Source: a virus
Strand: one strand, 5' to 3'
Length of the DNA: 64,000 nucleotides
Virus record (IMG/VR): IMGVR_UViG_3300024279_000007
Coordinates: 676 to 64,675 of that record
Program-made: the position numbers and the translations under genes
In this document: piece after piece, positions 1 to 60,693 of the stretch
Layout of the letters: the number at the start of each line of letters is the position of its first letter
Position numbering within the stretch: position 1 is the stretch's first letter
Notes under the pieces: model-generated
Database searches by the model: none
What the model was told of the DNA's origin: nothing
What the model saw: the letters and a program-made list of their open reading frames with translations, nothing else

Positions 1-537
1 ACCGTGCGCGGTGGTGCGACCTTCGGCAGCAGCGCGACCTTCGGTGCACGACCGGCATGGGCCGGTCTCACGCCGTGGGACAACGGCAACCTGACCAACC
101 TGAACCAACTAACCAACGGGCCGGGGTACCTGACGGCAGGTGGCACGATCAACCTTGCCACCAACGCCAACAAGATACTGAACGACTCGGCGTACATGAG
201 TCTGCACTTCAACAACATCGGTGCCAACCCAACCTACGTCTGGGTCAACTACAACGACGCCAACAACTCGTACCTGACGACGCCGGGTTCACTGAGTGTC
301 AACTTCGCCAACTTCGCTAACAGCGCGAACACTGCTAACAGCGTGGGTGGCGTTAGCAACCCGGCCACGGCAGGCGCGCAGACCCAGTGGAGTACCGGCG
401 TGGCGGAAGTAGGTATTGGCGGCAATAACACCGTCGCTGAAATGGGTGCCCCGTGGGTGGCCGAAGGCTGGCACAACATCGGCGGTCTCGGCTCTGGCGC
501 ACAGGCCATGCGATTCGTCGCCTTGAGGAACCAGTGA
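1..537 (+). CDS. Tail fibre, C-terminal part (5' end outside the window)
   Basis: Frame open from the window edge; G/N/T-rich fibre-like sequence; followed directly by two fibre-chaperone genes. Confidence 0.75.
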   Translation, partial: TVRGGATFGSSATFGARPAWAGLTPWDNGNLTNLNQLTNGPGYLTAGGTINLATNANKILNDSAYMSLHFNNIGANPTYVWVNYNDANNSYLTTPGSLSVNFANFANSANTANSVGGVSNPATAGAQTQWSTGVAEVGIGGNNTVAEMGAPWVAEGWHNIGGLGSGAQAMRFVALRNQ

Positions 538-3265: not shown

Positions 3266-3761
3266 TCCGTGGGTGTTGCTCGGCATCGTGCTTGCCTTCG
3301 CCGGGTCTAACGCGTGGTCATTCCATGAAGGCAGGCATTACTCCACTATCTCAATCGAAGCTGGACAGAAGCAGGCGGCTGACAAGGCTGCGGCGGAAGC
3401 GAAGGCCAATGCAGAGATTGATTATGGTGTCCAGCAGGAACTGGCTCTGGAGCAACAACGCCATGAACTTCTCTCTGAGACGCATCACAACCTTGTGGTC
3501 GAAGCGATCACCAAAGAGAAAGTCATACGCCAGCAACAGCCGCCCGTGGCGACTGGTGGCGCTATTGACTGCAATACCCCTTCTGGCACTTTCCGGGTGC
3601 TACTCGATTCCATCAGAGCCAGCAACAAGGGTGCCGCCCCAGCCACCGGCGCAGGTGATGGTGCCGTGTCAGGCGGCAACGGAACCAGCGGACCCGTCGC
3701 CGGAAGCGACGCAGTTCGCACTGGACAGCACAGCATGGACCCTCTCGACGTGTCGAAATGA
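3258..3761 (+). CDS. i-spanin (Rz-like)
   Basis: N-terminal TM helix plus coiled coil, directly after the endolysin. Confidence 0.8.
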   Translation: MLNPWVLLGIVLAFAGSNAWSFHEGRHYSTISIEAGQKQAADKAAAEAKANAEIDYGVQQELALEQQRHELLSETHHNLVVEAITKEKVIRQQQPPVATGGAIDCNTPSGTFRVLLDSIRASNKGAAPATGAGDGAVSGGNGTSGPVAGSDAVRTGQHSMDPLDVSK

Positions 3762-33135: not shown

Positions 33136-33172
33136 CTGGACAGTAGCATAAGCTGTTGAATAAAAACAGGTA

Positions 33173-33308
33173 GTGACGTTTGTGACGTTTCTTTGGGTAA
33201 GTGTAGTTAGTGACGTTAGTGACGTTTATACCCCTAAATCATAAAACTCTCTATACGAGCGCTGGCAGGAAAAACCTCTAAAAGGGTAAGAAACGTCACT
33301 AACGTCAC
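33173..33308. repeat. Iteron-like origin element downstream of the primase
   Basis: GTGACGTT at 33173, 33182, 33210, 33219; AT-rich spacer; inverted copies at 33292 and 33301. Confidence 0.8.
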
Positions 33309-33354
33309 TAGTAAGTAAAAACCCTTATAACTGAACAGAACTGGAGAACTGAAC

Positions 33355-44371: not shown

Positions 44372-44685
44372 CCGAAGCACTGGCCCGCCAGCTACAGGCG
44401 CTGCGACAGCCGACCGTCTCACGTGGCCGCACAGTTGTCACGCTAGGCCCGTGGACCAACGGCCACGATGAACAGGTGGCCATCGTCACTCATGTGTATG
44501 GCTGTGGCCTGCCGGGTGATCTGGTGAACCTGCATGTCTTCGTTGATCTGGCGGAAACGCTGATCGCGAGTGAGGTTCCGTGGTATCCGACACGTGCTGA
44601 TGCTGAACAGGCACTGGCCGCGAATGCAGAGAAAGCCAACATCACAGGCGGCGCGGTGTGCTGCTACTTTCCTGACAGGGTGTGA
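44356..44685 (+). CDS. Hypothetical protein
   Basis: GR.V...AIVTHV...VNLHVF.D pattern; coupled to the portal gene. Confidence 0.6.
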   Translation: MSEALTEALARQLQALRQPTVSRGRTVVTLGPWTNGHDEQVAIVTHVYGCGLPGDLVNLHVFVDLAETLIASEVPWYPTRADAEQALAANAEKANITGGAVCCYFPDRV

Positions 44686-47030
44686 ACATGCAAGGCGAAA
44701 CCCTTGATCCCGTGGCCAAAACCACAAACTTTGCTGAAGTGGAGTCGCAGCTAGAACGACTGCAACTGTTCAGCGCCATTCTGGTCAAGCGTCGCAACGA
44801 AGCACTTGACGCACGCGCCGCGTCCGGCACCGAACGCCGCTGGCTGGACGACCTCGACAGCTATCAGGGACGCGATGCCAGCACGCGCCGCGTGGACCTG
44901 ATGGACACGGTAAGCGGCACGCAGGTGGCGCAGCGTCGCACGGCAGGCGATACCACGACCGGCAAGCGCTCCACTGTCTTTGTCCAGTTGACGCGGCAGA
45001 AGACCAACGCCTGTGCGGCACGCGCCGCCGACATGCTGTTCCCGACAGACGACAAGAACTGGGGCATCAAGCCCACTCCTGTCCCTGAACTCATGGAAGC
45101 GCTGAAAAATGGACGGAACCAGCCTTACATTGACCCACAGACTGGCCAGCCCCTGCCGCATCCGGACCCTGAACAGCAGCAGCCTGCTCCGGATGGCAGC
45201 ACACCAGCGCCGGGTGCGGGTCAGGTCGTTACCTATGCCGACCTCGCTGCTGAACAGATGCAGATCGCGCAGCAGAAAGCCACTGCGATGGAGCGTGAGA
45301 TTGATGACCAGCTAACCGAATGCAGCTACAACGGTGAAGGCCGCAAGGTGTTGCAGGACGCGGCGAAGCTGGGCACGGGTGTGCTGAAGGGTCCGACTGT
45401 CCACAACGTTATCAAGAAGAAGTGGACGAAGAAGTCAGGTGCTGTGCACATGCTGGACATGGTGCAGGAAGTCAAGCCACAGACGTACCGTGTCGATCCG
45501 TGGAACTTCTACCCGGACCCGACCTGTGGCGACGATCACCAGAACGGCGCATACGTATTCGAGCGTGAGTTCCTGCCCGGTCGTTCACTGGCCAAGTATG
45601 CGAAGGTGCCGGGTTACAACTGGCAGGCGATTGCGCTGTGCCTCGCTGAAGGCCCGCAGCACGTACACCAGTCGGGCACCTACACGGACAACGTGCGTGC
45701 CGGTGAACTGGCCTACAACCAAGGCAACTATCAGGACAAGCGCTATGAACTGTGGACGTACACGGGTGACGTGGACCGTGACGACCTCGAAACGCTGGGC
45801 CTGTGCCCGCCTGAAGACGCGGCAACGTGGCTGGTGACGTTCAGTGCAGTCATCGTGATGTGCAACAACCGCATCATCAAGGCCATGCTGAACCCGCTGG
45901 ACACGGGTGACTTCCCGTATGACGTGTTCCACTGGGAGCGTGTGGACCTTTCGCCGTTCGGTGTCGGCGTGCCGTATCTGATGCGCTATGCACAGCGCAC
46001 CCTGAACAGCGCATGGCGGGCGATGCTCGACAACATGGCGCTGTCCAGCGGGCCACAGATCATCATGAACCGCAAGGCCGTGGTACCAGCCGATGGTAAC
46101 TGGGAACTGACGGCGCGCAAGCTGTGGTTCATGCAGGGCGACGCGGACGACGTGCAGAAGGCGTTCTGGGTATTCGAAGTCGCATCGCACCAGCAGGAGA
46201 TAGCGGCAATCATTGACCTCGCGCAGAAGTTCGCGGACGAGGAAACCAGCCTGCCACAGATCGCACAGGGTGAACAGGGCACGGCACCGGACACGGTGGG
46301 CGGCATGTCCATCCTGATGAACAGTGCGAACACGGTGCTGCGCCGGATCGTCAAGCAGTATGACGATGAAGTCACGCGTCCGCATATCCGTCGCTACTAC
46401 GACTGGAACATGCAGTACAGCGAGAAGGAGGAAATCAAGGGCGACTTCGAAATCGACGCCCGTGGTTCTTCTGTGCTTATTGTGCGTGACCAGATGGCGC
46501 AGGGTCTGGTGAACGTGGCCAACATGGCGAAAGACCCGGACTACGCGATCTTTGTGGACAAGCAGAAGCTGTTCCGCAAGATGGTGGAGGCCCAGCACAT
46601 CACACCTGACGACGTGATGAACACGCCTGAACAGATCAGCGCCAATCTCGACGCACAGAAGAACGCGCCGCCGCCGACTGATCCGCGCATTGAATCGGCC
46701 AACGTCAAGGCACAGAGCGACCAGAACATCGCGAAGCTGCGTGCCGACAGTGAACAGTCCTTCAGCGAGAAGCAGTTGCAGATCGCACGCGACAGCCATG
46801 CAGCGGAAATCTCCAAGCTGCAACTCCAGCGTGAACTGGCCATTCTCGAATACGCCAACCAGCAGAAAATGCAACTGACGGATATCAAGGCAGAGCTTCT
46901 GCAACTCGCCATGAAGCAGGGCCATGATTCTGTCCAGTCGCAGGCAGAGCGTATGACGCAGGCGGCACAGCAGAAGGGCAACCCGGCTGACGCTACCCCG
47001 CAACTTGACGCAACTGAGGCTTACGTATGA
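44682..47030 (+). CDS. Portal protein (podovirus type)
   Basis: 782 aa after terL; C-terminal coiled-coil barrel; GDFEIDARGSS. Confidence 0.9.
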   Translation: MNMQGETLDPVAKTTNFAEVESQLERLQLFSAILVKRRNEALDARAASGTERRWLDDLDSYQGRDASTRRVDLMDTVSGTQVAQRRTAGDTTTGKRSTVFVQLTRQKTNACAARAADMLFPTDDKNWGIKPTPVPELMEALKNGRNQPYIDPQTGQPLPHPDPEQQQPAPDGSTPAPGAGQVVTYADLAAEQMQIAQQKATAMEREIDDQLTECSYNGEGRKVLQDAAKLGTGVLKGPTVHNVIKKKWTKKSGAVHMLDMVQEVKPQTYRVDPWNFYPDPTCGDDHQNGAYVFEREFLPGRSLAKYAKVPGYNWQAIALCLAEGPQHVHQSGTYTDNVRAGELAYNQGNYQDKRYELWTYTGDVDRDDLETLGLCPPEDAATWLVTFSAVIVMCNNRIIKAMLNPLDTGDFPYDVFHWERVDLSPFGVGVPYLMRYAQRTLNSAWRAMLDNMALSSGPQIIMNRKAVVPADGNWELTARKLWFMQGDADDVQKAFWVFEVASHQQEIAAIIDLAQKFADEETSLPQIAQGEQGTAPDTVGGMSILMNSANTVLRRIVKQYDDEVTRPHIRRYYDWNMQYSEKEEIKGDFEIDARGSSVLIVRDQMAQGLVNVANMAKDPDYAIFVDKQKLFRKMVEAQHITPDDVMNTPEQISANLDAQKNAPPPTDPRIESANVKAQSDQNIAKLRADSEQSFSEKQLQIARDSHAAEISKLQLQRELAILEYANQQKMQLTDIKAELLQLAMKQGHDSVQSQAERMTQAAQQKGNPADATPQLDATEAYV

Positions 47031-47230
47031 GTTCAATCAACGCAGTGACCTACGTACTGGACAGCGGTGGCGTGCCGTTCAGTCCCGAATCGTGTGCGCA
47101 TGTCTACGGCTACACCGGCAGTGACATGACAAGCGACACGGCAACAGACGCACAGGGCATCGTGCGCAAGAAGACCTACGTGTACGCGGCTGGGATCATC
47201 CAGTCCGAAACCGCGTGGGTCCGGCAGTAA
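47027..47230 (+). CDS. Small hypothetical protein opening the enzyme insert
   Basis: ATGA-coupled to the portal gene; KKTYVY...SETAW tail. Confidence 0.7.
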   Translation: MSSINAVTYVLDSGGVPFSPESCAHVYGYTGSDMTSDTATDAQGIVRKKTYVYAAGIIQSETAWVRQ

Positions 47231-47251
47231 TCAACCAAGGAATGAACCGAC

Positions 47252-49090
47252 GTGAATCTGAATTACACAACCGACTGGCTTGCCAACACCCGTGGACTGA
47301 ACAACACCCGTGTTGGCAACTGCGCACGTTCGATGTGGGTGGCCCCGGAAGGCGTCATCTACACGGCGTCAATGTGGGATGAGAATGAGGGCGGTGTCGC
47401 CATCTACAGTGGCGGCGCGAACGCCGGTTCGATTGGTGTGCATAACGAGTTTCAGGGCGGCGCGATCACCGGCACGACCACGAAAATCTTCGCGGCACTC
47501 CAGTACAACGCGTCACTGGGCGGCAGCGGTCTCGTTGGCCGGTATGACCGTGTAAGCAAGGCCCGTGACTACATAATCGTAGTCAGCGCCACGACCACGG
47601 AGCGTCGCGCCGATGTGGTCACGGGCCTCGCATCATGGAGCCAGTGGCTTGCGGCCAGCGATTTCCCCGGCAACCGCGTGCGCATCTACAACACCAGTGG
47701 CGTGTGGCAGCTTGATATCCCGGTGAACGGTCCGGGTGCACTGGCGTTTGACCGCAACGGCAATATCTGTGTGGCCCAGAAGGCGCTGGGTCTGGTGTCG
47801 CGCTATAACCGCACGACGGGTGCGCTGATCGACATGATTACGCTGGACAGCGCAGCACGTCCGGCAGCGCTCTACTTCGACCCGGCCACGCAGTATCTGT
47901 GGATTGGCGACGAAGGCCCGGACCAGAACATCAAACAGTACAACATCAGCAGCACGCCGGTGTTCGTGACGACGTTCGGTGTGACGGGTGGTTATCTGGA
48001 CACCACGACGGGCATCAAGGGGCAGGTGGGCAGCAAGCGCTTCACCCGTGTGCACGGCATCGGCAAGGACAGTGCGGGCAACCTGTACGTACTGAACAAC
48101 CCGTGGGGTGGTACGTGGGACTTGGGCCGTGATGGCGGCACCGACATTCACTCGTACAGCGCAGCCGGTAACCTGCAATGGACGTTGCAGTCGGTGAACT
48201 TCGAAGGCGTGGCAGCACCGGACCAGATCGCGGACGGCACGTTCTACGGCGGCTGCAACATCTACTCAGGCACGGCTGGCGGCACGTTCGTGGCGAACAC
48301 GATTGACCCGTTCACATACCCCGGTGATCCGCGCATCAACCTGAACACGCCCAGCCGTGGCTCGCACTTCGGTCAGGTCGCGGCAATTGGTTCGAACCGC
48401 ATTCTGGTGTCGTGTGGACAGAACCCGGATGGTTTCGAGCTATACCACTTCACCCCGACAGGCGGCTATATCGCGGTGCCTGACGGTGTGGTACCGGGCC
48501 TGTTCTCCACGGCACGCGTGCGGCACGGCTACTGTCTGGCTCCCAACGGAGACCTGTGGATTGGCTTCGACAAGACGGGCGTCATTTCACACTATCCGCT
48601 GGCGAGTTTCGACGCGAACGGCAAACCGTCGTGGGGCGCTGCTGTCACGTACCCGATCCCCGCGAGTATCGGCCTGCTGACGCGGATCATCTATCTGCCG
48701 GACACCGACACGCTGATCCTTGCCAGTGGCATCGGCACGGACTGGACTTCAGTCGGCACGCGCGTCGAAGTGTATAGCGGCTGGCTGGCGGGCAACCGGA
48801 CGCCGATGGTCATCACGCTGTCCAGCACGAACCCGAAGGCACTGGCAGCGGCAGGCAACTACCTGTTCGTGGGCTACGTGCATACGGTGCCGAACATTGA
48901 CGCGTTCAACCTGACGACCGGCGCGCTGGACAACACGTTCATCAACGCCAACAGCAGCACGGTGGACGTGGGCAACGATGTGGACTCGATGTACGGTCTG
49001 TGCGCTTTCTTGCGCTCGACCGGTGAGTACGTGGTGACGAAGGACAACTACAACGATGCCAGCGTGATCGTGCATCGCTGGACACCCTGA
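47252..49090 (+). CDS. NHL/SMP-30-like beta-propeller protein
   Basis: Repeated blades such as GPGALAFDRNGNICVA, PAALYFDP, HGIGKDSAGNLYV; no signal peptide. Confidence 0.75.
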   Translation: MNLNYTTDWLANTRGLNNTRVGNCARSMWVAPEGVIYTASMWDENEGGVAIYSGGANAGSIGVHNEFQGGAITGTTTKIFAALQYNASLGGSGLVGRYDRVSKARDYIIVVSATTTERRADVVTGLASWSQWLAASDFPGNRVRIYNTSGVWQLDIPVNGPGALAFDRNGNICVAQKALGLVSRYNRTTGALIDMITLDSAARPAALYFDPATQYLWIGDEGPDQNIKQYNISSTPVFVTTFGVTGGYLDTTTGIKGQVGSKRFTRVHGIGKDSAGNLYVLNNPWGGTWDLGRDGGTDIHSYSAAGNLQWTLQSVNFEGVAAPDQIADGTFYGGCNIYSGTAGGTFVANTIDPFTYPGDPRINLNTPSRGSHFGQVAAIGSNRILVSCGQNPDGFELYHFTPTGGYIAVPDGVVPGLFSTARVRHGYCLAPNGDLWIGFDKTGVISHYPLASFDANGKPSWGAAVTYPIPASIGLLTRIIYLPDTDTLILASGIGTDWTSVGTRVEVYSGWLAGNRTPMVITLSSTNPKALAAAGNYLFVGYVHTVPNIDAFNLTTGALDNTFINANSSTVDVGNDVDSMYGLCAFLRSTGEYVVTKDNYNDASVIVHRWTP

Positions 49091-49123
49091 AGTAACAACC
49101 CCCAACCAACGGAGCAATCCAAC

Positions 49124-51175
49124 GTGTCTTCTTTGACCGATAACTTCTACAAGGCAAACCTGTCGCGCGGCATCGCGGGCACCCTTGCCGCATCTGTCGA
49201 TATCAGCGATCTGCTTGTCGCTGGGGATCAGACTCAGGCCGCAGCCAACGCTGCGTCCCTTCAGGCCATCATCGCTGCGATGGTTGCGGACGGCAATTAC
49301 CGGCCCATTACCATCAAACGCGCTGGCTCGTACTACTTCAATCAGGTGAAGCTGTACGACAACATTCACTTCGACATTGGCGTGAACGTGTCGATTGTGA
49401 AGCCGGACAACTACCAACCCTCGATGTTCATCAACGAAGGCGCACTGAACGGCACGCCGACCGCGAACAAGAATATCAAGATCACCGGACGCGGCACGAT
49501 TGACGGCAACGTGGCCAACCAGTCTGGACAGACGCAGGCCATCGCCGGTGCGATCACCGCCAACACGTTCCTGTACGGCATTCAGGGCGAGATTGCGATG
49601 ATCAACGTGGACGGTCTCGAAGTCGCGGTGCGCAACCCGAAGAACTGTCGTGGCTTCTTTGTCCAGTTTCAGGGCAGCAACGGGCACTTCCACGACATGC
49701 GTCCCGACACGACCACGGACTTCATCCACATCAACGGCCCGACGAACCACGTCGTGGTGCAGGATTGCAAGGGCTTCTCCAGTGCGGACTTCATCGGTCT
49801 GAACGCATGGGACTGGCACCGCAACGGTCCGACCACGGGTACGATCAACGACATTACGGTGAAGGACTGCGAATACAACGGCAGCAACGGCACGGGCGCT
49901 TATGCCCACACCGGCATGTTCGTCAAGTTCCTGTCCGGCACGCGTACCACGGGTGCAGGCGCGAATGGTCTCGCGGCCATCCAGAACGTGCGGATCGACG
50001 GTTTCAAGTGCGATCCGACCATCGGCACGGCTGTGGCCAACTCGCCGTGCTTCGGCATGATCGGTGACTGGGATCAGGCCCAAGGCACGGAGTACAGCGG
50101 TGTCGGTCTGGTAGAGAACGTCACGATCAAGTCTGGACAGAGCACCGTGCCGTCCTATCTGGGTCCGTTCTTCCTGCTGGCAAAGACGGCCAGCCCTTCG
50201 GACGCGGACGGCCAGTGCTCGGTGAACGTGCGCCGCTTCACGGTTGAGTCGGTGTTCGTGGACTGTTCGAAGGGTCAGCAGAACAGCTACAACCCGATTG
50301 GCTTCATGATGAAGTACAACACCTGTACGCTGAACGATGTGGTGTTCCGCGACATGGACTGGACACCTGCACCGCTGAACAGCGATCAGGGCTTCATCAC
50401 GCTGGCCAACAAGACGCTGATTGACTCGTTCGAAGTGGACGGCCTGACGATCAACGAGAACACGGGAGCAACCGCAGCCACGGCAGTCGTGCTGGTGGAC
50501 CGCTATGACGGCGTGAACCCCTGCATCGTGGACGACTTCACGTGCGACCGCATCAAGACTTCGGCAGGCTACCTGCTGCGTGGTGCGTGGCTGAAGGTGA
50601 ACGCCGGTATCAATAACTTCCGTTCGCGCGGCAACCATATCAACGGTGCTGGCAACAGCAGTGTGTACGGTTCGGGCATCTACGTGAACACGTCGGTGGC
50701 GTTCATCAAGCGCGGTGTGATCAGTGAGGCAGTGTTCAACGGTGTGCTGATCGGTGTGAATATCGACAGCGTTTCCGCCACCGGCGTGAACATGCACTAC
50801 GAGAACTGCAACCTGATCAACATGTCGCACCCGGTGTTCGTCAACGGTGCCTTCAATGCACGCGTGACGTACCGTGGCGGCAATATCGACACGTCCACCA
50901 ATCTGGTCAACTCGCAAGGCACGCTGACGGTCTCGTACGACGGCACCACGTCCAGCGGTACGGGCGCAGCCACACTGACCCGCAGCGCGGGCACGGTGCG
51001 CGTGCTGAAGTCGGATCAGATCGCGTTTGCCGCAGCCGCGCCGATGAACCCGGCCAACAACGATGTAGTGCTGTTCAGCGCAACCCCGCCTGCCTCGCCC
51101 AACGCGACGACCGGCACGGGTGCTGGCACCTACATTTACAGCGGTTCGGGTTCGAACTGGATCAAGCAGAACTAA
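49124..51175 (+). CDS. Beta-helix (pectin-lyase-like) tailspike/depolymerase 1
   Basis: AASLQAII N-cap, GRGTIDGN, DFIHING, N/G/T/I/V-rich repeats. Confidence 0.75.
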   Translation: MSSLTDNFYKANLSRGIAGTLAASVDISDLLVAGDQTQAAANAASLQAIIAAMVADGNYRPITIKRAGSYYFNQVKLYDNIHFDIGVNVSIVKPDNYQPSMFINEGALNGTPTANKNIKITGRGTIDGNVANQSGQTQAIAGAITANTFLYGIQGEIAMINVDGLEVAVRNPKNCRGFFVQFQGSNGHFHDMRPDTTTDFIHINGPTNHVVVQDCKGFSSADFIGLNAWDWHRNGPTTGTINDITVKDCEYNGSNGTGAYAHTGMFVKFLSGTRTTGAGANGLAAIQNVRIDGFKCDPTIGTAVANSPCFGMIGDWDQAQGTEYSGVGLVENVTIKSGQSTVPSYLGPFFLLAKTASPSDADGQCSVNVRRFTVESVFVDCSKGQQNSYNPIGFMMKYNTCTLNDVVFRDMDWTPAPLNSDQGFITLANKTLIDSFEVDGLTINENTGATAATAVVLVDRYDGVNPCIVDDFTCDRIKTSAGYLLRGAWLKVNAGINNFRSRGNHINGAGNSSVYGSGIYVNTSVAFIKRGVISEAVFNGVLIGVNIDSVSATGVNMHYENCNLINMSHPVFVNGAFNARVTYRGGNIDTSTNLVNSQGTLTVSYDGTTSSGTGAATLTRSAGTVRVLKSDQIAFAAAAPMNPANNDVVLFSATPPASPNATTGTGAGTYIYSGSGSNWIKQN

Positions 51176-51187
51176 AAGAGGATCAGC

Positions 51188-52654
51188 ATGCGAAGCGTAT
51201 ATACCGATAACTTCAAGCAGAGCGTGCTGGCCGGTCTGGGTATCCCCCTGACCGACAGCCGGTGTGTCTCGTCCTTCCCTTCGTCCGGCACCGACGATAC
51301 CGCGCAGATCGCAGCCGCGTATGCGTGGCTGGCGGGTGGCCCGTACCGGGGCCTGTGGTTTGAGTTCCGCCAGTACATCATATCTGGACAGCTTGCCCTG
51401 ACCGGCGCAGTCAACTTCCGCATCTTCGGGAACGGCGCGTCGATCAAGGCAGCGGACGGCAGTGCGGCTGGTGCCGGTACGCAGATGTTCTACATGACGA
51501 ACAGCACGGACGGCGAGATTTACGACCTGAACTACGATGGCAACCGCGCGAACCGCACGCCGTCTGAGACCACTAGCCACCTGTTCGAAATCTACACCGG
51601 TTGCGCACGCATTGACGTGTTCAACTGCCGTGCTGATAACGCGGTGTGCGATGGCTTCTACGTCGGTGCCCAGTCGCCCACGTCGCTGAACGTGCCGACC
51701 GATATCCGCTTCTTCCAGTGTTCAGCCGACAACGGCTACCGCAACTGCATGTCCCTCATCAACTCGGTGCGCTTCCGTGATTATGACGGGGTGTACACGG
51801 GTGCTAACGGCACGCTGCCGAAGGCCGGTGTGGACGTGGAGCCGAACAGCAGCACGGATATCGGCAACGTGGACTGCCAGTTCCACCGCACGCGCTTTAC
51901 CGGCAATGCGAACTACGGTTTGCAGGTGACGCTGGCGAACTCGCAGGTGAAGTGCTTCGATATCGTGTCCAGCGGGAACACGGGCGGCGCGGTCGGCTGC
52001 TTCTCGTCGGGCAGTCTGGAGATTCAGGGCATCACGATGGAAGACTATACGTCGTCCGTCACGCGTGGCCTGATCGACGTGGGTTCCGGAAGTGGCTATG
52101 TCAGCGTGGACGGCATCCGCATCAACAACTGCCAGCAGAACAACAGCGCCAAACCGATGATCTATGTGCATGCGGCGGCAACGGGTCCGGTGCGCTTCTC
52201 GGATATTGTCCAGCGCAACAGCAAGGGACCGACGCTGGTGTCGTACCTGAAGGCCTACGTGGACGGTTTCGCGATGTACGGCGACAACAACGACTACGCC
52301 TTCACGCTGCTGGGTGCAAAGAACAGTGTTCTGCGCAACCTGTACAGCGATGGCAGCGGCGCGATGCTGTACACGGAGCAACCGTGCACGGACGTGGAGA
52401 ACGTCAAGATGGTCAACCCGCTTCCCACGGGTGGCCTTCTGTTCTTCGCGGCAGTGGCCACACGGTGCTCGCTGAAGAACATGCACGTGCATCAGGACGT
52501 GGCAGTTCCCGCTGGACAGATTGGTTGCCAGTTTGCTGTGGCACCGCTGGTCCTGTCCAACAACGTCGGCACCTGCGACGGTACTGCCTACACAGCTGCG
52601 CAAGTACGCAGCATAACGGGCACGCCTTCCGTGTCGCTGGGCCTTTTCCCGTAA
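51188..52654 (+). CDS. Beta-helix depolymerase 2
   Basis: GTDDTAQIAAA, DGFYVG, DNGYRNCMS, AGVDVEPN motifs. Confidence 0.8.
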   Translation: MRSVYTDNFKQSVLAGLGIPLTDSRCVSSFPSSGTDDTAQIAAAYAWLAGGPYRGLWFEFRQYIISGQLALTGAVNFRIFGNGASIKAADGSAAGAGTQMFYMTNSTDGEIYDLNYDGNRANRTPSETTSHLFEIYTGCARIDVFNCRADNAVCDGFYVGAQSPTSLNVPTDIRFFQCSADNGYRNCMSLINSVRFRDYDGVYTGANGTLPKAGVDVEPNSSTDIGNVDCQFHRTRFTGNANYGLQVTLANSQVKCFDIVSSGNTGGAVGCFSSGSLEIQGITMEDYTSSVTRGLIDVGSGSGYVSVDGIRINNCQQNNSAKPMIYVHAAATGPVRFSDIVQRNSKGPTLVSYLKAYVDGFAMYGDNNDYAFTLLGAKNSVLRNLYSDGSGAMLYTEQPCTDVENVKMVNPLPTGGLLFFAAVATRCSLKNMHVHQDVAVPAGQIGCQFAVAPLVLSNNVGTCDGTAYTAAQVRSITGTPSVSLGLFP

Positions 52655-52667
52655 TCAGGAGCCTGCA

Positions 52668-54068
52668 ATGAATCTCGGTCAGTTCGCGGTATTCGCGAAG
52701 ATTCTCGGTCTCGGCAAGGCAGTGAGCACGGTCGCAGGTGGCCCGAATGGCGTGGACGACACTGCTTCATTGCAGGCGATCATCAACACCATTGTGGGCA
52801 ACCCCGGCAAGGGGCTGAAGATACCGGACGGTCGCTACAAGATCAGCGCGCCCCTGAACATCGGGGTGGACAACTCCAGCATCGTGACGGGCATCAAGAT
52901 TGAAGGCTCGTCACGCGGCGGTGTGATCATCGAACAGATGACCAACAACGTGCCGATCTTCAACGTCACTGGACAGTTCGTTCACTCCTGTCACTTCAAG
53001 ACGATGACGCTGCTGTACACCAACCAGCAGTCAACGGACAACGGTGGCAACTGCTTCAAGGTGAACGGTCCCGGTGGTGGCAGCTTCTACAACTCCACCT
53101 TCGAAGACATAACGGCCACGAAGTTCTACTACTTCATGGACTGCCCGACTGTCACGTGGTGGGGCAATATTTATAACGACATGTGGTTCGGTGCCTTCAG
53201 TGGCGGCATTAACCGGATCAGTGCCGTGGCCGGTGAGCCTCGCTGTACCTTCCGTAACCTGTACATCACGGGTGAACTCGCAACAAACACGCTGTTCAGG
53301 CACACCGCCATGACAGCGCTGTACGACAACATCGAAATCAACAACTGCGTCAACGGTGTGCCGATTCTGGCAGACGTGAGTGGTGGCACGCACGTTATCT
53401 CACACCTTGCGCTGGAAGGCGCGACGTATGCCACTGGTACGACGCAACTGTTTGAAGTCTCGAACAGCCGGTTGATTGCGGACTATATCTATCTGACCGC
53501 GCTGGTGCTGAACGCGGGCGCGGTGGTGTATGCGTTCCACCCGCAGGGTGGCAAGTCCATCGCACACATCAAGGTGCTTGAACTGGCGTTCAGTTCCAAC
53601 AACGGCCAGTTCTACTGTTTCAACTCACAAGGCCCGATCCCCAGCATGCTGGGGGAAGTGACCGGCCTGAATCCGGCTGGTGGCTCGACGCTGTGCGATA
53701 TCGGTGGCTCGGTCGCGGCCAACTTCATGTATGTGCAGCGCTGGAATGAAATGTCACGGATTGCGTACAAGGGTGATGCAGATGCCTCGCTCCTGTATGA
53801 CGATCCGGCCACGCAGGTGCTGGACATACCGACCACGGCAATCCGCACGGTCACATTGCCACAGGCTACGGCTGTGGCCAGTACCGCGATGTTCTCGGGC
53901 CGTCGCTTCAAGTTTGTGCGGACCGCTGCCTCGACGGGTGGTTTCGCATGGAACATCAACGACTCAAGTGCGGTACAGCAGGCCACCCTCGCGGCTGGAC
54001 AGTCAGTTGAATTTGTCTGGCAGCGCAGCGGGGCAGGCACCAACTTCAAGTGGGTCAAAGTAGGCTAA
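52668..54068 (+). CDS. Beta-helix depolymerase 3
   Basis: GVDDTASLQAIIN...IPDGRYKISAPL pectate-lyase-3-type N-terminus. Confidence 0.8.
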   Translation: MNLGQFAVFAKILGLGKAVSTVAGGPNGVDDTASLQAIINTIVGNPGKGLKIPDGRYKISAPLNIGVDNSSIVTGIKIEGSSRGGVIIEQMTNNVPIFNVTGQFVHSCHFKTMTLLYTNQQSTDNGGNCFKVNGPGGGSFYNSTFEDITATKFYYFMDCPTVTWWGNIYNDMWFGAFSGGINRISAVAGEPRCTFRNLYITGELATNTLFRHTAMTALYDNIEINNCVNGVPILADVSGGTHVISHLALEGATYATGTTQLFEVSNSRLIADYIYLTALVLNAGAVVYAFHPQGGKSIAHIKVLELAFSSNNGQFYCFNSQGPIPSMLGEVTGLNPAGGSTLCDIGGSVAANFMYVQRWNEMSRIAYKGDADASLLYDDPATQVLDIPTTAIRTVTLPQATAVASTAMFSGRRFKFVRTAASTGGFAWNINDSSAVQQATLAAGQSVEFVWQRSGAGTNFKWVKVG

Positions 54069-54084
54069 CCAACAGGAGCATTAA

Positions 54085-55281
54085 ATGCGTTCCAAGCTGA
54101 ACGGAATTATCAGTTCGAAAAGAGGCGCAAAACGCGCCATCGCCATCGGGGACTCGATCACCGCGATGGACGCAGTACAGGCTGGCTCGGGACTCTGGAC
54201 ACAGGGTAACGGCTGGTTTGAACAGGCCATCCGGACTGGCTATGACGGTCCCTTCGCGTTCGTCCGCAATGCAGGCGTCGCAGGCAACACGGCGCAGCAG
54301 ATGCTGGCCCGGCTGGACACGGACGTACTGGCCTACGCGCCGGACGTGGTGTTCATCATGGCGGGCACCAACAACATTCTCACGGGCGCAACGAACACCG
54401 ACTACGCGAACTGCATGAACGCCATCGAACAGATGGTGCTGCGCTGTCTGGTGTCCGGCATTGATGTGGTGCTCTCGACGCCGCCTGCCAAGGATGGCGC
54501 GAAGCTGGAAATGAACAAGGCCATTCCGCTCTACTTCCGGCTCGCGCAGCACTACGGTATTCCGCTGATCGACGCGCACCGTGCGACGGTGGACCCAGTG
54601 ACGGGCGGCTACCGCGCTGGCCTGTCCGATGACGGCACGCACCCGAATCAGGCCGGTATCAAGGAAATCATGGTTGAGTGGCAGTCGGTCATCCAGCAAG
54701 GTTTTCAGGACGTGTTCCGTGCCCGCGTGGCAGAGACCTCGGCGGGTTCGATCACGAACTACATTCGCAACGGCAACTTCGTGAAGAACACGTCGCCGCC
54801 CGCGATGGACAACTGGACAGTCAACACGACCGGCGCGACGTTCACGCAGGACACGACGGGTCTGGGTGGTCCATTTCACCTGTCCGGCAAGCAGTTCGAC
54901 TACGTGAAGACGGCGGCAGGCGGCGCGTATGCGCTGTACGGCACGGACGCTGACTCGGGCTACGCGGACGGCGACACGCTGGTGTTCAGCGGTCTGTTCG
55001 GCTGCACGTCGCTCGCAGCTTCCCCGAACGGCTACACGATGCTGTTGCAGTTCGGCAGCGCGGACAGCGTGCGCCCGTACAACACGACCAAAAAGGTGCA
55101 GGGCGCGCTGGAGTCGTTCAGTCAGGAGTTCGTGGTGCCGACCGGCTACGCGGGCGTGAACGCACTGCTGCCGCAACTGTTTGTTCAGGACGTGGGCACC
55201 TACCTCGTCGCTGAACTGACGCTGTGGAACAAGACGAAGTACGACGCAATCTGGAAGCCGGGTGCGCTTCTGAACGTCTAA
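54085..55281 (+). CDS. SGNH/GDSL esterase with C-terminal beta-sandwich domain
   Basis: GDSIT, GVAGNT, AGTNN and DGTHPN blocks. Confidence 0.9.
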   Translation: MRSKLNGIISSKRGAKRAIAIGDSITAMDAVQAGSGLWTQGNGWFEQAIRTGYDGPFAFVRNAGVAGNTAQQMLARLDTDVLAYAPDVVFIMAGTNNILTGATNTDYANCMNAIEQMVLRCLVSGIDVVLSTPPAKDGAKLEMNKAIPLYFRLAQHYGIPLIDAHRATVDPVTGGYRAGLSDDGTHPNQAGIKEIMVEWQSVIQQGFQDVFRARVAETSAGSITNYIRNGNFVKNTSPPAMDNWTVNTTGATFTQDTTGLGGPFHLSGKQFDYVKTAAGGAYALYGTDADSGYADGDTLVFSGLFGCTSLAASPNGYTMLLQFGSADSVRPYNTTKKVQGALESFSQEFVVPTGYAGVNALLPQLFVQDVGTYLVAELTLWNKTKYDAIWKPGALLNV

Positions 55282-55291
55282 AAGCTGTTCA

Positions 55292-55391
55292 GTTAGTGAC
55301 GTTAGTGACGTTTCTGAATCAAAAATCAATTTTCTCTATATGTACGTCTAGGGAAAACTGAAAAAGAGGATAGAAACGTCACAAACGTCAC
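55292..55391. repeat. Second copy of the iteron-like element
   Basis: GTTAGTGACGTTAGTGACGTTT identical to 33206-33227; AT-rich spacer; inverted pair at 55375 and 55384. Confidence 0.85.
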
Positions 55392-55428
55392 TGCCCTTCT
55401 CTCCCCCTGAACGAAACGGAGTTTCATC

Positions 55429-56814
55429 ATGACCGACGACGCAACGAACGCGGTACCGCCCGCTGCACCTATCCCCGCCGCGCCCGCTGCCAACTCAGTG
55501 GAGTCCAGCGATGCACAAGTCACACAGCAAGTCAGCGACCCGGCACCGGATGCAACGGCAGTACCGGTCGATGCAGCACCGCCTGCCCCCGTCCAACCCG
55601 TGGACAGCGCTCCTGCACCGGATGCTGGGACTGTTCCCGCCGATCCTGTAGTGGGAAACGATGCACCCACACCGCCCGCTGGCGATGCTACGCCTGTGGC
55701 TGGTGACCCGGCACCGGCTGATCCGGTTCCCGCACCTGTGGCAGAAGCACCGGCCCCGGTCGAAGCAGCACCGGCCCCGGTCGATCCGGCTCCCGTAGCC
55801 GAAGCACCGGCCCCGGAACCGGCTGTTGACCCGGCACCCGTGACAGAACAACCCGCCCCGGTCGATCCGGCTCCTGTGGCAGAAGCCCCGGCCCCGGAAC
55901 CGGCACCGGAACCGGCTACACCCGTGGTGGAAGCCCCGGCACCGGAAGCCCCGCCCGCAGCAACGGAACCGGCTGCGCCTGCCGCTCCCGTCGATTCAGC
56001 GCCCACTGGAGCACCGGAAGGCAGCGACGGCACCACGCCCCCGGATTCCAGCGCAAACGGCATTCCCGATGCACCCGCCCCGGTCGATCCGGTTCCTGCG
56101 CCGGAAGTGCCTGTACCTGAACAGCCTGCACCGGAAGTCCCTGTTCAGCCTGTACCTGAACAGCCTGTGCCGGAAGTGCCGGTTGTTGCGCCGCTGCCCG
56201 ACATGCCCGCACCGACGGTACCCGCCGACACCACGCCGGTCAGCAACCCGGCCCCCACGGCGGAAGTCACGTCTACGGACTTCACGGTTGCAGCCAACGC
56301 GATTGACTCGATGGCGGCACTGTTCGCAGCCATGTCGGACGCGAGCAAGGCACTGCATCAGGTGGGCCGCTTGCAGGAAACGCTGAACGACCGGCAGAAC
56401 CAGTTGAACGATCTGGATTCGCAGATCGCGCAGAAGCAGGCGAAGCTGGATGCACTCACGCAGGACGTGCTGAACGCCCGCGACTACGCTGTCAAGCTGG
56501 TCACGGCTGCGTCCACCAGCACCGAAGACGCCGTGAATCAGGCGAACGATACCGCGCAGCAACTGGTGGCCAAGGCGGCAGCGACGAACGCGAGCGCCCA
56601 GAAGCAACTGGACGACATGCTTCAGCAGGGTCAGGCCCAGATCAACGCATGGCGCGCGGAAGCCACGGCTGATGCGACCGCGCTCAACGCCGATCTGGAC
56701 ACCAAGCGTGCCGAACTCCAGTGGGTGACGGATGAACTGGCCCGCGAGCAAGCCAAGCTGGACGAAGTAAAGGCTCAACTCGCGAAGATCAACACGGACG
56801 GCGCAACGTCCTAA
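55429..56814 (+). CDS. Pro/Ala-rich repeat protein with C-terminal coiled coil
   Basis: APAPVE/DPAPVAEAPAP repeats, then ~170 aa of heptads; GGAG RBS. Confidence 0.8.
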   Translation: MTDDATNAVPPAAPIPAAPAANSVESSDAQVTQQVSDPAPDATAVPVDAAPPAPVQPVDSAPAPDAGTVPADPVVGNDAPTPPAGDATPVAGDPAPADPVPAPVAEAPAPVEAAPAPVDPAPVAEAPAPEPAVDPAPVTEQPAPVDPAPVAEAPAPEPAPEPATPVVEAPAPEAPPAATEPAAPAAPVDSAPTGAPEGSDGTTPPDSSANGIPDAPAPVDPVPAPEVPVPEQPAPEVPVQPVPEQPVPEVPVVAPLPDMPAPTVPADTTPVSNPAPTAEVTSTDFTVAANAIDSMAALFAAMSDASKALHQVGRLQETLNDRQNQLNDLDSQIAQKQAKLDALTQDVLNARDYAVKLVTAASTSTEDAVNQANDTAQQLVAKAAATNASAQKQLDDMLQQGQAQINAWRAEATADATALNADLDTKRAELQWVTDELAREQAKLDEVKAQLAKINTDGATS

Positions 56815-56829
56815 ACGGGAGCATCAACC

Positions 56830-58227
56830 ATGCGACGTGGCGATCAGGAATTATTCCCGCGACGGCTGGACACCAACGTGGCGGGAGCCGAAGGTGAACT
56901 GACTGTGAACGTGGCAGGCACCCGCGCTTACGTGCACGATGGCAAGACGCCCGGTGGTGTCCCGCTGGTTGATGCACTCGGGCCGGGTCTCAAGCGCGTA
57001 GGCAGCGGTATCACGATCCCGAACCGGCGTCCCAAGCGCATCATCGGGATCGGTGACTCGATCATGCAGTCGTCCAGTTCGCACGCCCCCAGTGGCTTCG
57101 ATGCGAAGGGCAACAGGATTCCCGACAACTGGCGTTCAGGTACGGGCATCTTCGAACAGACGCTGTGGAAGGCGAACGGGCTGGGCACTAACGGCCAGTG
57201 GCAGTTCCTTGCCAATCAGGGCATCGCTGGACAGACGACCACGCAGATTCTGGCGCGGTTCGACAACGACGTGATTGCGTACAAGCCGGACGTGTGCTGG
57301 ATCATGGCCGGGACCAACGACATTACGCTCGGTGGCGGTGACGCTGAAATCGCCGGGATCATGAACCGTCTTGAACAGATGGTCCTGAAATGTATCAACG
57401 CGGGCATCGCGGTGCTGCTGGCCACGCCGCCATGCCGCGACGCTGCTGCGGCCTCGACACAGAATATCCAGCCGTTCTACTACGATCTGGCGAACTACTA
57501 CAACATTCCGCTGCTGGACGTGAACCGGGTGGTGGTGAACCCGGTCAACGGCACCTACAAGGCCGGTCTCTCGGCTGACGGGGTGCACCCGAACAACACG
57601 GCGTCCGACAGCATTTCGAACGAACTGGCCAAGGCACTGGCCAACCCTGAACAGTACATCAACAGGCCGTATCTCGCCGCGAGTTCGTTCCTCTTTGTGA
57701 ACAACCACGCCAACCTGCTGATAAACGGTAACTTCTCACAGGGTGTGGACGGCGGCAACAACCCGCTGGGCTGGACAACCAACCAGTCAACCGGCAACAC
57801 GGGATCGGTGGCCACGGCGGCATCACTGCCGTACACCGGACAGAAGTTCCTCTACACGGTTCCCCCTGCTGGCGCGGTGAGCGTGTATGCGCTGTTCAGT
57901 AATAACGTGGATGCCGTGTTCCCGGCAGGCGACGTGCTGGAGTTCAGCGCGGCGCTGAAGATCACCGGCATGAACCCGGCAACCTCGGCAGGCGTGTCGC
58001 TGATGCTGGCCTTCGACGGCCCCTTCTCGACCGCTGCCGCGCCGGTGAACGCACAGGTGACGAACATGGATGGCGTGGTGACGGGTGAGTGCTATGTACC
58101 GCAGGGCTGTACGTCCATCAACATGCAGTTGTATTCGCAGGACCAGAACGTGACGTACACCGTACAGAACGCCACTGTCACCAACAGGACCATGCGTGCC
58201 CGTGCATGGGCACCGGGGTTGCAATGA
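56830..58227 (+). CDS. SGNH esterase paralogue with an Mtd_N-like N-terminal anchor
   Basis: GAEGELTVN...YVHDGKTPGGVPL, then GDSIM, GIAGQT, AGTND, DGVHPN. Confidence 0.85.
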   Translation: MRRGDQELFPRRLDTNVAGAEGELTVNVAGTRAYVHDGKTPGGVPLVDALGPGLKRVGSGITIPNRRPKRIIGIGDSIMQSSSSHAPSGFDAKGNRIPDNWRSGTGIFEQTLWKANGLGTNGQWQFLANQGIAGQTTTQILARFDNDVIAYKPDVCWIMAGTNDITLGGGDAEIAGIMNRLEQMVLKCINAGIAVLLATPPCRDAAAASTQNIQPFYYDLANYYNIPLLDVNRVVVNPVNGTYKAGLSADGVHPNNTASDSISNELAKALANPEQYINRPYLAASSFLFVNNHANLLINGNFSQGVDGGNNPLGWTTNQSTGNTGSVATAASLPYTGQKFLYTVPPAGAVSVYALFSNNVDAVFPAGDVLEFSAALKITGMNPATSAGVSLMLAFDGPFSTAAAPVNAQVTNMDGVVTGECYVPQGCTSINMQLYSQDQNVTYTVQNATVTNRTMRARAWAPGLQ

Positions 58228-58484
58228 TTGACGATCAGCTTATCCGCAAGGTTCAACGCTTCATGCACGATGACAGTCTTGCATGGCAGGCTCTTGTCCA
58301 GTATGCGAACGCCGCGATCCAAGACCGCCGCGAAGCACTGGACAACCCGGAGCTAGACGCCATAAAGACCGCCCTAGTGCGTGGCGAGATAAAGGCACTA
58401 AAGGAACTGCTTGCCCTGCCAACCTTGGTAACGCAAGTAGCGCAACGCGATCCGGGATACGGCGTCACGATTGGTGACGACTGA
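58224..58484 (+). CDS. Small head-module protein
   Basis: LVRGEIKALKELL; sits before the scaffold gene. Confidence 0.7.
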   Translation: MIDDQLIRKVQRFMHDDSLAWQALVQYANAAIQDRREALDNPELDAIKTALVRGEIKALKELLALPTLVTQVAQRDPGYGVTIGDD

Positions 58485-58519: not shown

Positions 58520-59494
58520 ATGTCCGACGTGAATGCAAACGCAGCAACGAACGCCGACGAAGGCAAGACCGCAGCGCAAATCTGGGCCGAAGAATCTGCT
58601 GGACAGCAGACGACGCCGCTCGCCGACGCACCTGCACCGACGCCCGCACCGGCACCCGAAGCAGCAGTACCCACACCTGCACCAGCCCCCGCCCCGGCAC
58701 CTTCGCCTGCACCCGCAGCCGATGATCCTTATGCCGGTCTGCACCCCGCTGTTGTCCAGCGGCTGCGCGGATTGGACGGACTGGAGCAACGCCTGCGCAA
58801 AAGCGAAGGCACCATCGGTAATCTGAACAGTCAGTTGACGGGCCTGAAAGACGAGAACTCTCGTATGAAGACGGCTCTGGAGCAACGCGCCTCGACCGCA
58901 GCAGCGGGTGGCTCGGCTCCTACCGCAGCGGCGGTGACAGCGGCTGGAAAGAATAGCGAGAAGTGGGCAGCGCTGAAAGAGGAATTTCCCGAATGGGCGG
59001 AAGCGGTGGAAGAAAGATTGGCCGGTCAGCCTTCGCAGGCACCCGTCGATCTGGACAGCCTGCGCACGCAGATTCGGGATGAACTCACGGGCGAACTGAC
59101 CGGCAGGATCACGGCTGATGTTCAGGCCGCGACCGAAGACCGTCTGGTCAACGTTGCACACCGGGGCTGGAAAGATCTGGTGAAGACGCAGCAGTTCGCG
59201 GACTGGATGAAGGCACAACCTTCAGAAGTTCAGGCACTGGGCGCAAGCCCGGTCGCGGAAGACGCAATTGCGCTACTGGACAACTTCAAGGACTGGCAAC
59301 GCGCGCAGCCTGCGCCTGTCGATCCGCAAAAGGTGGCCGCTGAACGCAAGCAACGCCTTCAAGACGCAGCATCTTTGGTGCGTGGTGGCAACTCGCAGCA
59401 GCCGATCAAGTCCCCCGATGACATGTCCGCAGAAGAACTGTGGGCGTATGAAGCGGCGCAGCTTGAACGGCAGAAGCAGGGGCAACGACGCTAG
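58520..59494 (+). CDS. Capsid scaffolding protein
   Basis: Acidic, Pro-rich then coiled; typical position upstream of the capsid gene. Confidence 0.75.
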   Translation: MSDVNANAATNADEGKTAAQIWAEESAGQQTTPLADAPAPTPAPAPEAAVPTPAPAPAPAPSPAPAADDPYAGLHPAVVQRLRGLDGLEQRLRKSEGTIGNLNSQLTGLKDENSRMKTALEQRASTAAAGGSAPTAAAVTAAGKNSEKWAALKEEFPEWAEAVEERLAGQPSQAPVDLDSLRTQIRDELTGELTGRITADVQAATEDRLVNVAHRGWKDLVKTQQFADWMKAQPSEVQALGASPVAEDAIALLDNFKDWQRAQPAPVDPQKVAAERKQRLQDAASLVRGGNSQQPIKSPDDMSAEELWAYEAAQLERQKQGQRR

Positions 59495-59667: not shown

Positions 59668-60693
59668 ATGAGCATGCAAGGGTATAGCACCGCACCTTCG
59701 CGGAACCTCATCCGGGCTGAACAGGCCATGCTTTCTCACGCTGAACCGATCATCGTGCTGGGCAACTTCGGCACGCAAAAGGAACAGCCGTTGAACAAGA
59801 CGGACACGGTGGTGTTCCGCCGCCTGAACCCGTTCAACATGCAGGCGAACGGCACGCCGGGTGTGGTCGCACAGAACTTCGTGCTGGCTGAAGGCACGAC
59901 GCCGAACAGCAACAGCATCACCTACACGGACGTGTCGGTGACGTTGCAGCAGTACGGCATCCTGTTCAAGTTCTCCAGCAAGGTCGAAGCCCTGTACGAA
60001 GATGACATTCCTTCGGACATGGCCACCCTCACGGGTGAGACGCTGGCTGAAGTCTCGGAACTGATCCGCTATGGCGCGGTCAAGGCGGGCACCAACGTGC
60101 TGTACGGCAACGGCGCGAGCCGTGCGTCCGTCAACACGGTTATCTCGCTGAACCGCCTGCGTCAGGCCGTGCGTGCGCTGGAAAACGCCCGCGCGAAGAT
60201 GGTCACGCAGCGCCTGTCCACGGGTGTGAACTACGGCACCCAGCCGGTCGAACCGGGCTACATCGTGTTCGTCCACACGGACGTGGAGTCGGACGTGCGC
60301 AACCTGCCGGGTTTCACGAAGACGGTGGAGTACGCACAGTTCAAGCCTGTCCACGAACGTGAAATCGGTTCGGTGGAGCGCTACCGCTTCGTCACGTCGC
60401 CGCTGCTGGCCCCGTTCCTCGCGGCTGGTTCGCCCACGCTGAACGGTTGCCTCTCGCAGGGCGCGACCAACGTTGATGTGTACCCCGTAATAATCATGGC
60501 TCAGGAAGCATGGGGGCAGGTCGCGTTGAAGGGCATGGGTGCCATCCAGCCGACGATCCTCCCGGCCAAGCAGAAGAACCACGCCAACCCGCTGGGCCAG
60601 TTCGGCTACGTGGGCGCAAATTTCTGGACAGCAAGTGTTCGTCTGAATGAGAACTGGCTTGTTCGTCTGGAAGTTGGCGTGACCGCTCTCTAA
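59668..60693 (+). CDS. Major capsid protein (N4-gp56-like)
   Basis: P.NKTDTVVFRR, VTLQQYG, HTDVESDVRNLPGF..VEYA, EIGSVERYRFV, NPLGQFGYVG. Confidence 0.9.
   Translation: MSMQGYSTAPSRNLIRAEQAMLSHAEPIIVLGNFGTQKEQPLNKTDTVVFRRLNPFNMQANGTPGVVAQNFVLAEGTTPNSNSITYTDVSVTLQQYGILFKFSSKVEALYEDDIPSDMATLTGETLAEVSELIRYGAVKAGTNVLYGNGASRASVNTVISLNRLRQAVRALENARAKMVTQRLSTGVNYGTQPVEPGYIVFVHTDVESDVRNLPGFTKTVEYAQFKPVHEREIGSVERYRFVTSPLLAPFLAAGSPTLNGCLSQGATNVDVYPVIIMAQEAWGQVALKGMGAIQPTILPAKQKNHANPLGQFGYVGANFWTASVRLNENWLVRLEVGVTAL

Follow-up and report, generated by a model that had tools for sequence, protein, structure and literature searches.

The DNA analysed here, a window of 64,000 nucleotides, corresponds to positions 676-64675 of IMGVR_UViG_3300024279_000007, a 65,858-bp IMG/VR virus record that is rated 100% complete, and its packaging and head region contains a block of genes (47027-58227) that we tentatively interpret as an accessory island of glycan-active proteins. 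All genes of the block lie on the + strand in one orientation, each with a Shine-Dalgarno sequence 5-9 nt ahead of its start, and they are spaced by 13-34 bp with the one exception of a 148-bp gap between genes E and F. The first cargo gene, g67 (47027..47230, +; 67 residues), starts in overlap with the portal stop codon and is followed by A (47252..49090, +; 612 residues), a tandem double beta-propeller that by its sequence is a copy of a secreted Burkholderiaceae protein without the signal peptide. Three beta-helix proteins come next: B (49124..51175, +; 683 residues), a right-handed beta-helix with no globular N-terminal domain, C (51188..52654, +; 488 residues), a bare beta-helix protein, and D (52668..54068, +; 466 residues), which is capsule-depolymerase-like. 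E (54085..55281, +; 398 residues) is an SGNH esterase with a conserved C-terminal domain of ∼170 residues and no N-terminal extension. An intergenic repeat element that carries no strand (55294..55393) then divides the block into A-E and F-G, the second part comprising F (55429..56814, +; 461 residues), which has a Pro/Ala/Val-rich N-terminal half and a C-terminal coiled coil, and G (56830..58227, +; 465 residues), an SGNH esterase paralogue with an extra conserved N-terminal module of ∼60 residues. The beta-helices, SGNH esterases, propeller, and Pro-rich coiled-coil protein listed in a first-pass annotation of this DNA are all present in this co-oriented arrangement, and inspection of the block N-termini agreed with it in finding no signal peptides. 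A scan of the block for sigma-70 promoters and terminators returned background levels only.

The models of B, C, and D all show the right-handed parallel beta-helix body that is found in tailspike depolymerases. In the AlphaFold2 (AF2) model of B (predicted local distance difference test (pLDDT) 88.7, predicted template modelling score (pTM) 0.88), residues 1-21 are disordered and are followed by a helix cap and a beta-helix that runs to the end of the chain, with Foldseek matches to GH28 enzymes, phi29 gp12, and the HK620 tailspike. For C and D, ESM Atlas models of the exact sequences are available (pTM 0.85 and 0.70, respectively); the best beta-helix clusters align to C with a template modelling (TM) score by query of 0.82 and a 'tail spike protein' cluster with 0.77, and D reaches TM scores of 0.67/0.74 against a cluster with Pect-lyase_RHGA_epim and Cap_depo. 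An N-terminal anchor was not found on any of the three (no Head_binding, Tail_spike_N, or similar Pfam or PHROG match), and both C and D start at the helix cap, with 25-35 residues before the conserved DDT cap motif. C is also shorter than its homologues at either end, being without the C-terminal extension of P0193-P0195 (K1-lyase_C is on record for P0194) and without the N-terminal fibre repeats of P0196. A short TDNF-K motif is found within the first 15 residues of both B and C but not in A, D, and E; by itself it does not suffice to define a docking peptide.

Relatives of these proteins are scarce. Sequence searches of the PDB with B and C returned nothing, A, B, and D have no match among GenBank phages, and C has one weak partial match there, to a Vibrio phage tail spike. 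B belongs to a rare family, with 67 clusters in a set of 1.84 billion representatives, and when viral contigs were scanned directly with B or G, a single close relative was recovered. Among sequenced cultured phages B, C, and D are without relatives or nearly so, and the three proteins may therefore have new polysaccharide specificities.

Both esterases score well above the cut-off of 32.9 for Pfam PF13472 (Lipase_GDSL_2), E with 83.9 bits (2.6e-23) and G with 70.1 bits (4.3e-19), and they are paralogues that share 36% identity over their full length, including the C-terminal domain. The catalytic blocks G75-D76-S77, G161-T162-N163, and D250-G251-x-H253 (numbered as in G) do not vary among six homologues. 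The paralogues differ at the N-terminus, where E begins 20 residues before the catalytic GDS, whereas residues 14-48 of G match phrog_9648 'tail protein' (8e-5) and the same end gives a weak match to Mtd_N (PF18454; E 0.035, 14.5 bits, under the cut-off of 26.3). This module of G is kept in the nearest relative of the phage, L010, and in L012, making three phages with the one studied here, and it marks G as apparently the only block protein with an anchor-like N-terminus; none was found on A to E. E matches phrog_6102 'lipase', and this family, to which both esterases belong, is classed as 'moron, auxiliary metabolic gene and host takeover' and not as tail.

In F, ∼280 Pro/Ala/Val-rich residues are followed by ∼180 coiled-coil residues. 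L010, L006, L007, and L012 all retain the coiled-coil half, which tblastn also matches in L004, L008, and L009, and the low-complexity part ranges from 0 to 280 residues among relatives. F has a weak match to phrog_3590, a family of unknown function, and none in a 5.8-billion protein set; its coiled-coil half matched nothing meaningful among PDB sequences. The possibility that F is a paralogue of the scaffold protein was rejected, the matches being to low-complexity Pro/Ala sequence only. A complex prediction with three copies of F(285-461) and three of G(1-66) gave a score of 0.00 with poorly folded chains, which weighs neither way for the idea that the two form a shaft and its tip.

From end to end, protein A shares 65-69% identity with ∼640-residue SGL-family chromosomal proteins of Paraburkholderia, Burkholderia, and Caballeronia, genera in which such homologues are widespread (a few also occur in Acidobacteria), and 73% with two metagenomic proteins. 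The bacterial homologues carry an N-terminal signal peptide, and A starts exactly at their mature N-terminus. In the terms of the known family, A resembles the secreted SMP-30/gluconolactonase/LRE-like proteins of Burkholderia/Paraburkholderia (∼640 residues) with 65-73% identity over the whole mature chain, but it differs from them in having no signal peptide, in lying within a late phage operon, and in carrying the octamer CTG(A/G)ACAG that recurs across the phage genome (two copies inside A, zero in the bacterial homologue). On this sequence evidence A is a captured host secreted protein from which the signal peptide has been removed. The Paraburkholderia domus homologue stands alone among metabolic genes and not in a prophage or exopolysaccharide (EPS) cluster. 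A second signal-less phage copy, P0003 (73%), is encoded by a temperate phage (L085, 7350-9182) between RecT and integrase genes, well away from the beta-helix tailspike genes of that phage, so that the Burkholderiaceae double-propeller protein is present in two unrelated phages. On the same L085 contig, an Acyl_transf_3 gene adjoins the beta-helix tailspike genes. In a FastTree phylogeny of the A family the phage copies and two signal-bearing proteins form one clade with a support of 0.999, the monophyly of the phage copies themselves being weakly supported.

The AF2 model of A (pLDDT 76.8) is a tandem double propeller of SGL/NHL type. A scores 17.4 bits against PF08450 (SMP-30/gluconolactonase/LRE), under the cut-off of 26.3, and its 65-73% identical homologues have precomputed PF08450 matches that are weak where shown; structure searches with A returned generic tandem WD-like double propellers only, with no enzyme signature. 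The first-pass annotation had counted the propeller among the putative depolymerases, which proved unfounded for a captured host secreted protein with a temperate-phage homologue that is encoded among non-structural genes. Some members of the block, and A especially, might instead have an intracellular role, either on precursors (sugar nucleotides or polysaccharide precursors) or unrelated to glycans, and the block would then be a set of mixed morons. The loss of the host signal peptide from A, the place of its homologue among early/recombination genes, and the generic character of its structural matches are all in line with such a role, as is the absence of A and C from the nearest relative, where the block works without them. 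Set against this, the host version of A acts outside the cytoplasm, and the other six proteins have coherent glycan-related folds, with esterase and beta-helix genes co-occurring elsewhere. We consider an intracellular role distinctly improbable.

We compared 49 related loci with both a portal and a capsid gene (50 loci with the window). In these relatives the basal arrangement is portal, a small gene of ∼73 residues, scaffold, and capsid, and the portal-to-capsid distance is mostly ∼1.2-2 kb; with 12,638 bp the window has the longest of the 50. In eight relatives this portal-scaffold slot is filled with 3-8 kb of cargo of differing contents. In the nearest relative, L010, g67 recurs in unchanged order together with B, D, E, F, and G, the last five with 41-70% protein identity (B 70%, D 55%, E 56%), which is more than chance would give. 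A and C are absent from L010, which makes them dispensable additions or losses. The product of g67 has no Pfam or PHROG family match and is found in L010 only (76% identity), other cargo-bearing relatives having a different gene of 100-123 residues at its place. The portal-scaffold slot is a recurrent cargo hotspot in this clade, with recombination. The number and position of these genes had been called unusual: the cargo is indeed the longest of the 50 loci, but the position recurs in the clade and in other podophage lineages.

The upstream boundary of the hotspot is the portal gene (44682..47030, +; 782 residues), which matches phrog_332 (2.5e-46) and phrog_1216 (6.7e-13) and is 82% identical to that of L010 and 60-63% identical to those of L004-L012. 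At the downstream boundary lies a conserved 86-residue gene (58224..58484, +), in relatives the usual neighbour of the portal gene; most of them, with cargo or without, have a homologue immediately ahead of the scaffold gene. The scaffold-like protein (58520..59494, +; 324 residues) has no family match and takes its presumed role from position and composition, being directly before the capsid gene in ∼40 relatives, and the major capsid protein (59668..60693, +) matches phrog_1357 (6.8e-53). The description of the block as inserted between portal and scaffold therefore holds on the portal side; on the other, the conserved 86-residue gene intervenes before the scaffold gene.

The block has the same G+C content at third codon positions (GC3) as the core genes and contains the octamer CTG(A/G)ACAG at 1.8 copies per kb, compared with 2.4 per kb in the whole window (155 copies). 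Because GC3 equals that of the core genes and the genome-wide octamer is present, the block genes are long resident and not an assembly artefact. A recent chimeric assembly was rejected, the composition having no sign of recent foreign origin. The octamer occurs 34 times in 19.4 kb of the closest relative, L091, and 3 times in 19.3 kb of the next relative, L092.

SGNH domains recur in the cargo of the relatives, in proteins of 537 residues (L006), 449 residues (L012, a G-like esterase), and 797 residues (L070), and in L006 and L070 the SGNH domain is fused to parts that match tail PHROGs (phrog_15881 and phrog_5939, respectively). F-like coiled coils are found in the cargo of some relatives. 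A 130-residue protein of phrog_3758 'virion structural protein' (1.5e-32) is encoded in the cargo of L006 (10822-11214) and L012 (13525-13917) and is absent from the window; in both relatives its gene adjoins an F-like coiled-coil gene.

The canonical tail fibre gene is found elsewhere, directly after the gene for a 625-residue tail protein and 6.6 kb downstream of the block, across the contig junction. Its open reading frame spans the 134-bp terminal overlap of the record and starts at genome position 65494 (window 64819), so that the window begins with the C-terminal 178 of its 480 codons (1..537, +). In the two relatives whose loci extend this far, the 480-residue fibre is conserved from end to end (50% in L091, 40% in L092), and its first 46 residues are conserved in distant relatives. 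Directly after the fibre gene stand two tandem paralogous genes (539-949 and 946-1347; 136 and 133 residues) that are conserved in L091 and L092 and may encode fibre chaperones or assembly factors. The proposal that the block forms a branched appendage found no structural basis: no T4gp10-like/XD branching domain was matched in the block proteins or in the unassigned structural proteins of 394, 370, 228, and 365 residues, in library scans that did not include the 480-residue fibre and in which a diverged domain could escape a sequence search.

These observations bear on the possibility that most or all of the block encodes a receptor-binding apparatus of several enzymes that the virion carries on its tail or neck, with G, F, or the fibre as its platform and with docking by short N-terminal peptides. 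The tailspike-like folds of B, C, and D, the conserved N-terminal module of G with its tail PHROG match, and the short motif common to the N-termini of B and C all speak for it, as do the SGNH-tail-PHROG fusions and the 'virion structural protein' family in the cargo of relatives. The late-operon position and the absence of signal peptides fit it as well, the removal of the signal from A being equally consistent with assembly in the cytoplasm. However, no anchor or branching domain was detected except on G, a canonical fibre is already present at the conserved tail locus, and homologues of A and B occur in non-structural contexts (in the RecT/integrase region and after a primase gene, respectively). 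We regard a virion-borne apparatus as possible but rather unlikely, second to the reading with free enzymes and a tethered G that is set out below. If it were true, the phage would carry several depolymerase specificities, like the multi-tailspike phages.

Homologues of B, C, and E were also found in unrelated phages. A 47% homologue of B is located three genes after the large terminase subunit in L086, together with a 49% homologue of E and another beta-helix gene. Among the small early genes of the same L086 contig, a Tad2-like (anti-Thoeris) protein is encoded at 3373-3603. Further B homologues lie after a lambda-type portal (L089, 35%) and after a primase (L088). In L118, a BPP-1/epsilon15-like podophage, a 46% homologue of C stands between the capsid gene and a T7-type portal, in L119 another 46% homologue lies directly upstream of a third portal type, and in L120 a 41% homologue with N-terminal fibre repeats shares its contig with a GDSL gene. 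Genes for beta-helix and SGNH proteins thus recur in each other's company, often beside packaging or portal genes.

Given that the block lies inside the head module and that B and C homologues repeatedly adjoin portal or terminase genes in unrelated phages, its proteins might be displayed on the capsid or portal vertex as head decorations or head fibres, as the first-pass annotation had suggested; F, a long Pro-rich coiled-coil protein, could form such a fibre. Gene position alone does not show a place in the particle, and podophage tailspikes also dock close to the portal. Pfam and PHROG searches of the block found no capsid-binding, Ig-like, or decoration-type domain. There is also no similarity to the Syn5 horn and knob proteins: with Syn5 gp53, gp54, gp55, and gp58 against the block and all hotspot proteins of the relatives, no BLASTP match went below E 0.06, and phmmer listed none at E values up to 1. 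Display on the head accordingly fared worst among the readings weighed here, and we think it very improbable. A broader proposition is that the portal/terminase slot is a general home, in several podophage lineages, for anchor-independent glycan enzymes, including captured host secretome genes that have lost their signal peptide, and that these enzymes are incorporated at or near the portal vertex or co-released without known tailspike anchors. This is improbable too; were it true, it would amount to a stepwise EPS-stripping system organised unlike all described receptor-binding-protein architectures.

The 148-bp gap between E and F contains TAGTGACGT twice, an AT-rich spacer of ∼62 bp, and then the inverted repeat twice. 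The same layout of TAGTGACGT occurs at 33171-33310, an intergenic position after the primase gene in a + strand region, and near-matches to it number 14 against 2.1 expected. This iteron-like element could be a regulated promoter or a pair of binding sites. L010 has a terminator-like hairpin at the E/F position in its place. Because of this element and the L010 hairpin at the same spot, A-E are probably transcribed with the terminase-portal transcript and F-G with the scaffold-capsid transcript.

The ends of the record overlap by 134 bp (1-134 versus 65725-65858, 99% identity), and the true genome length is ∼65.7 kb, with a circular map or a short terminal repeat. The genome encodes its own replication proteins (DNA polymerase, primase-helicase, helicase, exonuclease, and a gp2.5-like single-strand-binding protein) and the packaging and head proteins of a podophage (small and large terminase subunits, a T7-type portal, and an N4-gp56-like capsid protein), and no integrase was seen among the genes examined. 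The best cultured relatives reach at most 36% identity in the portal and 41% in the capsid protein. We read the phage as an uncultured virulent podophage with a gene island in its packaging/head region. Its host is probably a member of the Burkholderiaceae, as suggested by the bacterial homologues of A together with the GC content of 60%. Downstream of the tail genes, 8523-15848 encodes a 2,441-residue protein with a C-terminal LPD38 domain (3.9e-40), which is probably an ejected polyvalent protein.

The reading that we favour, with somewhat less than even confidence, is that of an accessory glycan-active island that combines deacylation with cleavage, in which G is perhaps tethered and the anchorless A-E are free after lysis. 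E and G would remove acyl groups from the host surface polysaccharide (EPS, capsule, or O-antigen), after which B, C, and D would cleave the exposed polysaccharide backbone, and the presence of several enzymes would widen the range of glycans that can be handled. This order of events had been proposed in the first-pass annotation, and the pairing of esterase and beta-helix genes in the unrelated L086 and L120 fits such a division of labour, the activities themselves being what we infer from sequence. G would probably be tethered to the virion, perhaps together with F, since it is the only protein with an anchor-like N-terminus and since the module there is kept in three phages, with a match to a tail PHROG. 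The anchorless A to E would most likely build up in the cytoplasm and act as free enzymes at cell lysis, clearing polysaccharide around the progeny and neighbouring cells. Free enzymes are favoured for A-E because they have no anchors, because the canonical fibre is in its usual locus, and because phrog_6102 is filed as a moron family. Release at lysis, which the first-pass annotation had offered as its alternative, is thus the one of its mechanisms that suits the absence of anchor domains on A to E.

Both elements of this scheme have precedents. Depolymerases that are set free at lysis form an established class (PMC5380687), and two further reports describe SGNH deacetylase fibres in N4-like and Acinetobacter phages (PMC9569702, PMC8471582). 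The two marks of soluble depolymerases, no virion anchor and encoding outside the tail module, are both seen in the anchorless enzymes of the block, which resemble the lysis-released proteins (PMC5380687) also in being late genes without export signals. In contrast to that class, the block comprises seven genes and not one, includes esterases, a propeller, and a coiled-coil protein, has an anchor-like N-terminus on G, and is known here from its genes alone.

Several phages carry multiple tailspikes or branched anchor systems, among them G7C, with gp66-gp63.1 and an SGNH esterase spike, KP32, with gp37-gp38, CBA120, with TSP1-4, and PhiK64-1. The block resembles these in combining several glycan-active proteins in one phage, with SGNH deacylases and beta-helix depolymerases, and one of its esterases, G, has an N-terminal module that its paralogue E is without. 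It differs from them in that no T4gp10-like or other branching domain was detected and five of its seven proteins are anchorless, and in that its genes lie between portal and scaffold and not in the tail module, with a separate canonical fibre.

A number of points weigh against the free-enzyme reading. The structural matches of the beta-helix proteins include true tailspikes and the phi29 neck appendages, and the matches to phrog_5939 in L070, phrog_15881 in L006, and phrog_3758 suggest that the slot can encode virion parts. In KP32-type systems the secondary receptor-binding proteins dock through short N-terminal peptides, and the TDNF-K motif of B and C is to be seen in this light. A may have nothing to do with polysaccharide, and the assignment of the host draws on one captured gene and the GC content. 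Finally, the phage is known only from its sequence, with a best cultured relative that reaches no more than 41% identity in the capsid protein. Whether the enzymes are virion-borne or free is the question that decides the weight of the finding.

What is new here is an esterase/depolymerase set that is mostly anchorless, adjacent to the portal, and accompanied by a captured host secreted protein; we do not claim a new mechanism. That such genes recur next to portal and terminase genes in several unrelated lineages appears to be under-described, and glycan genes in this position bear on the evolution of host range and of biofilm penetration. If the enzymes work as proposed, soil podophages would stack swappable genes in one hotspot as a multi-step toolkit against acylated exopolysaccharides, directed at the thick EPS of Burkholderia-type bacteria and borrowing even a secreted protein of the host.

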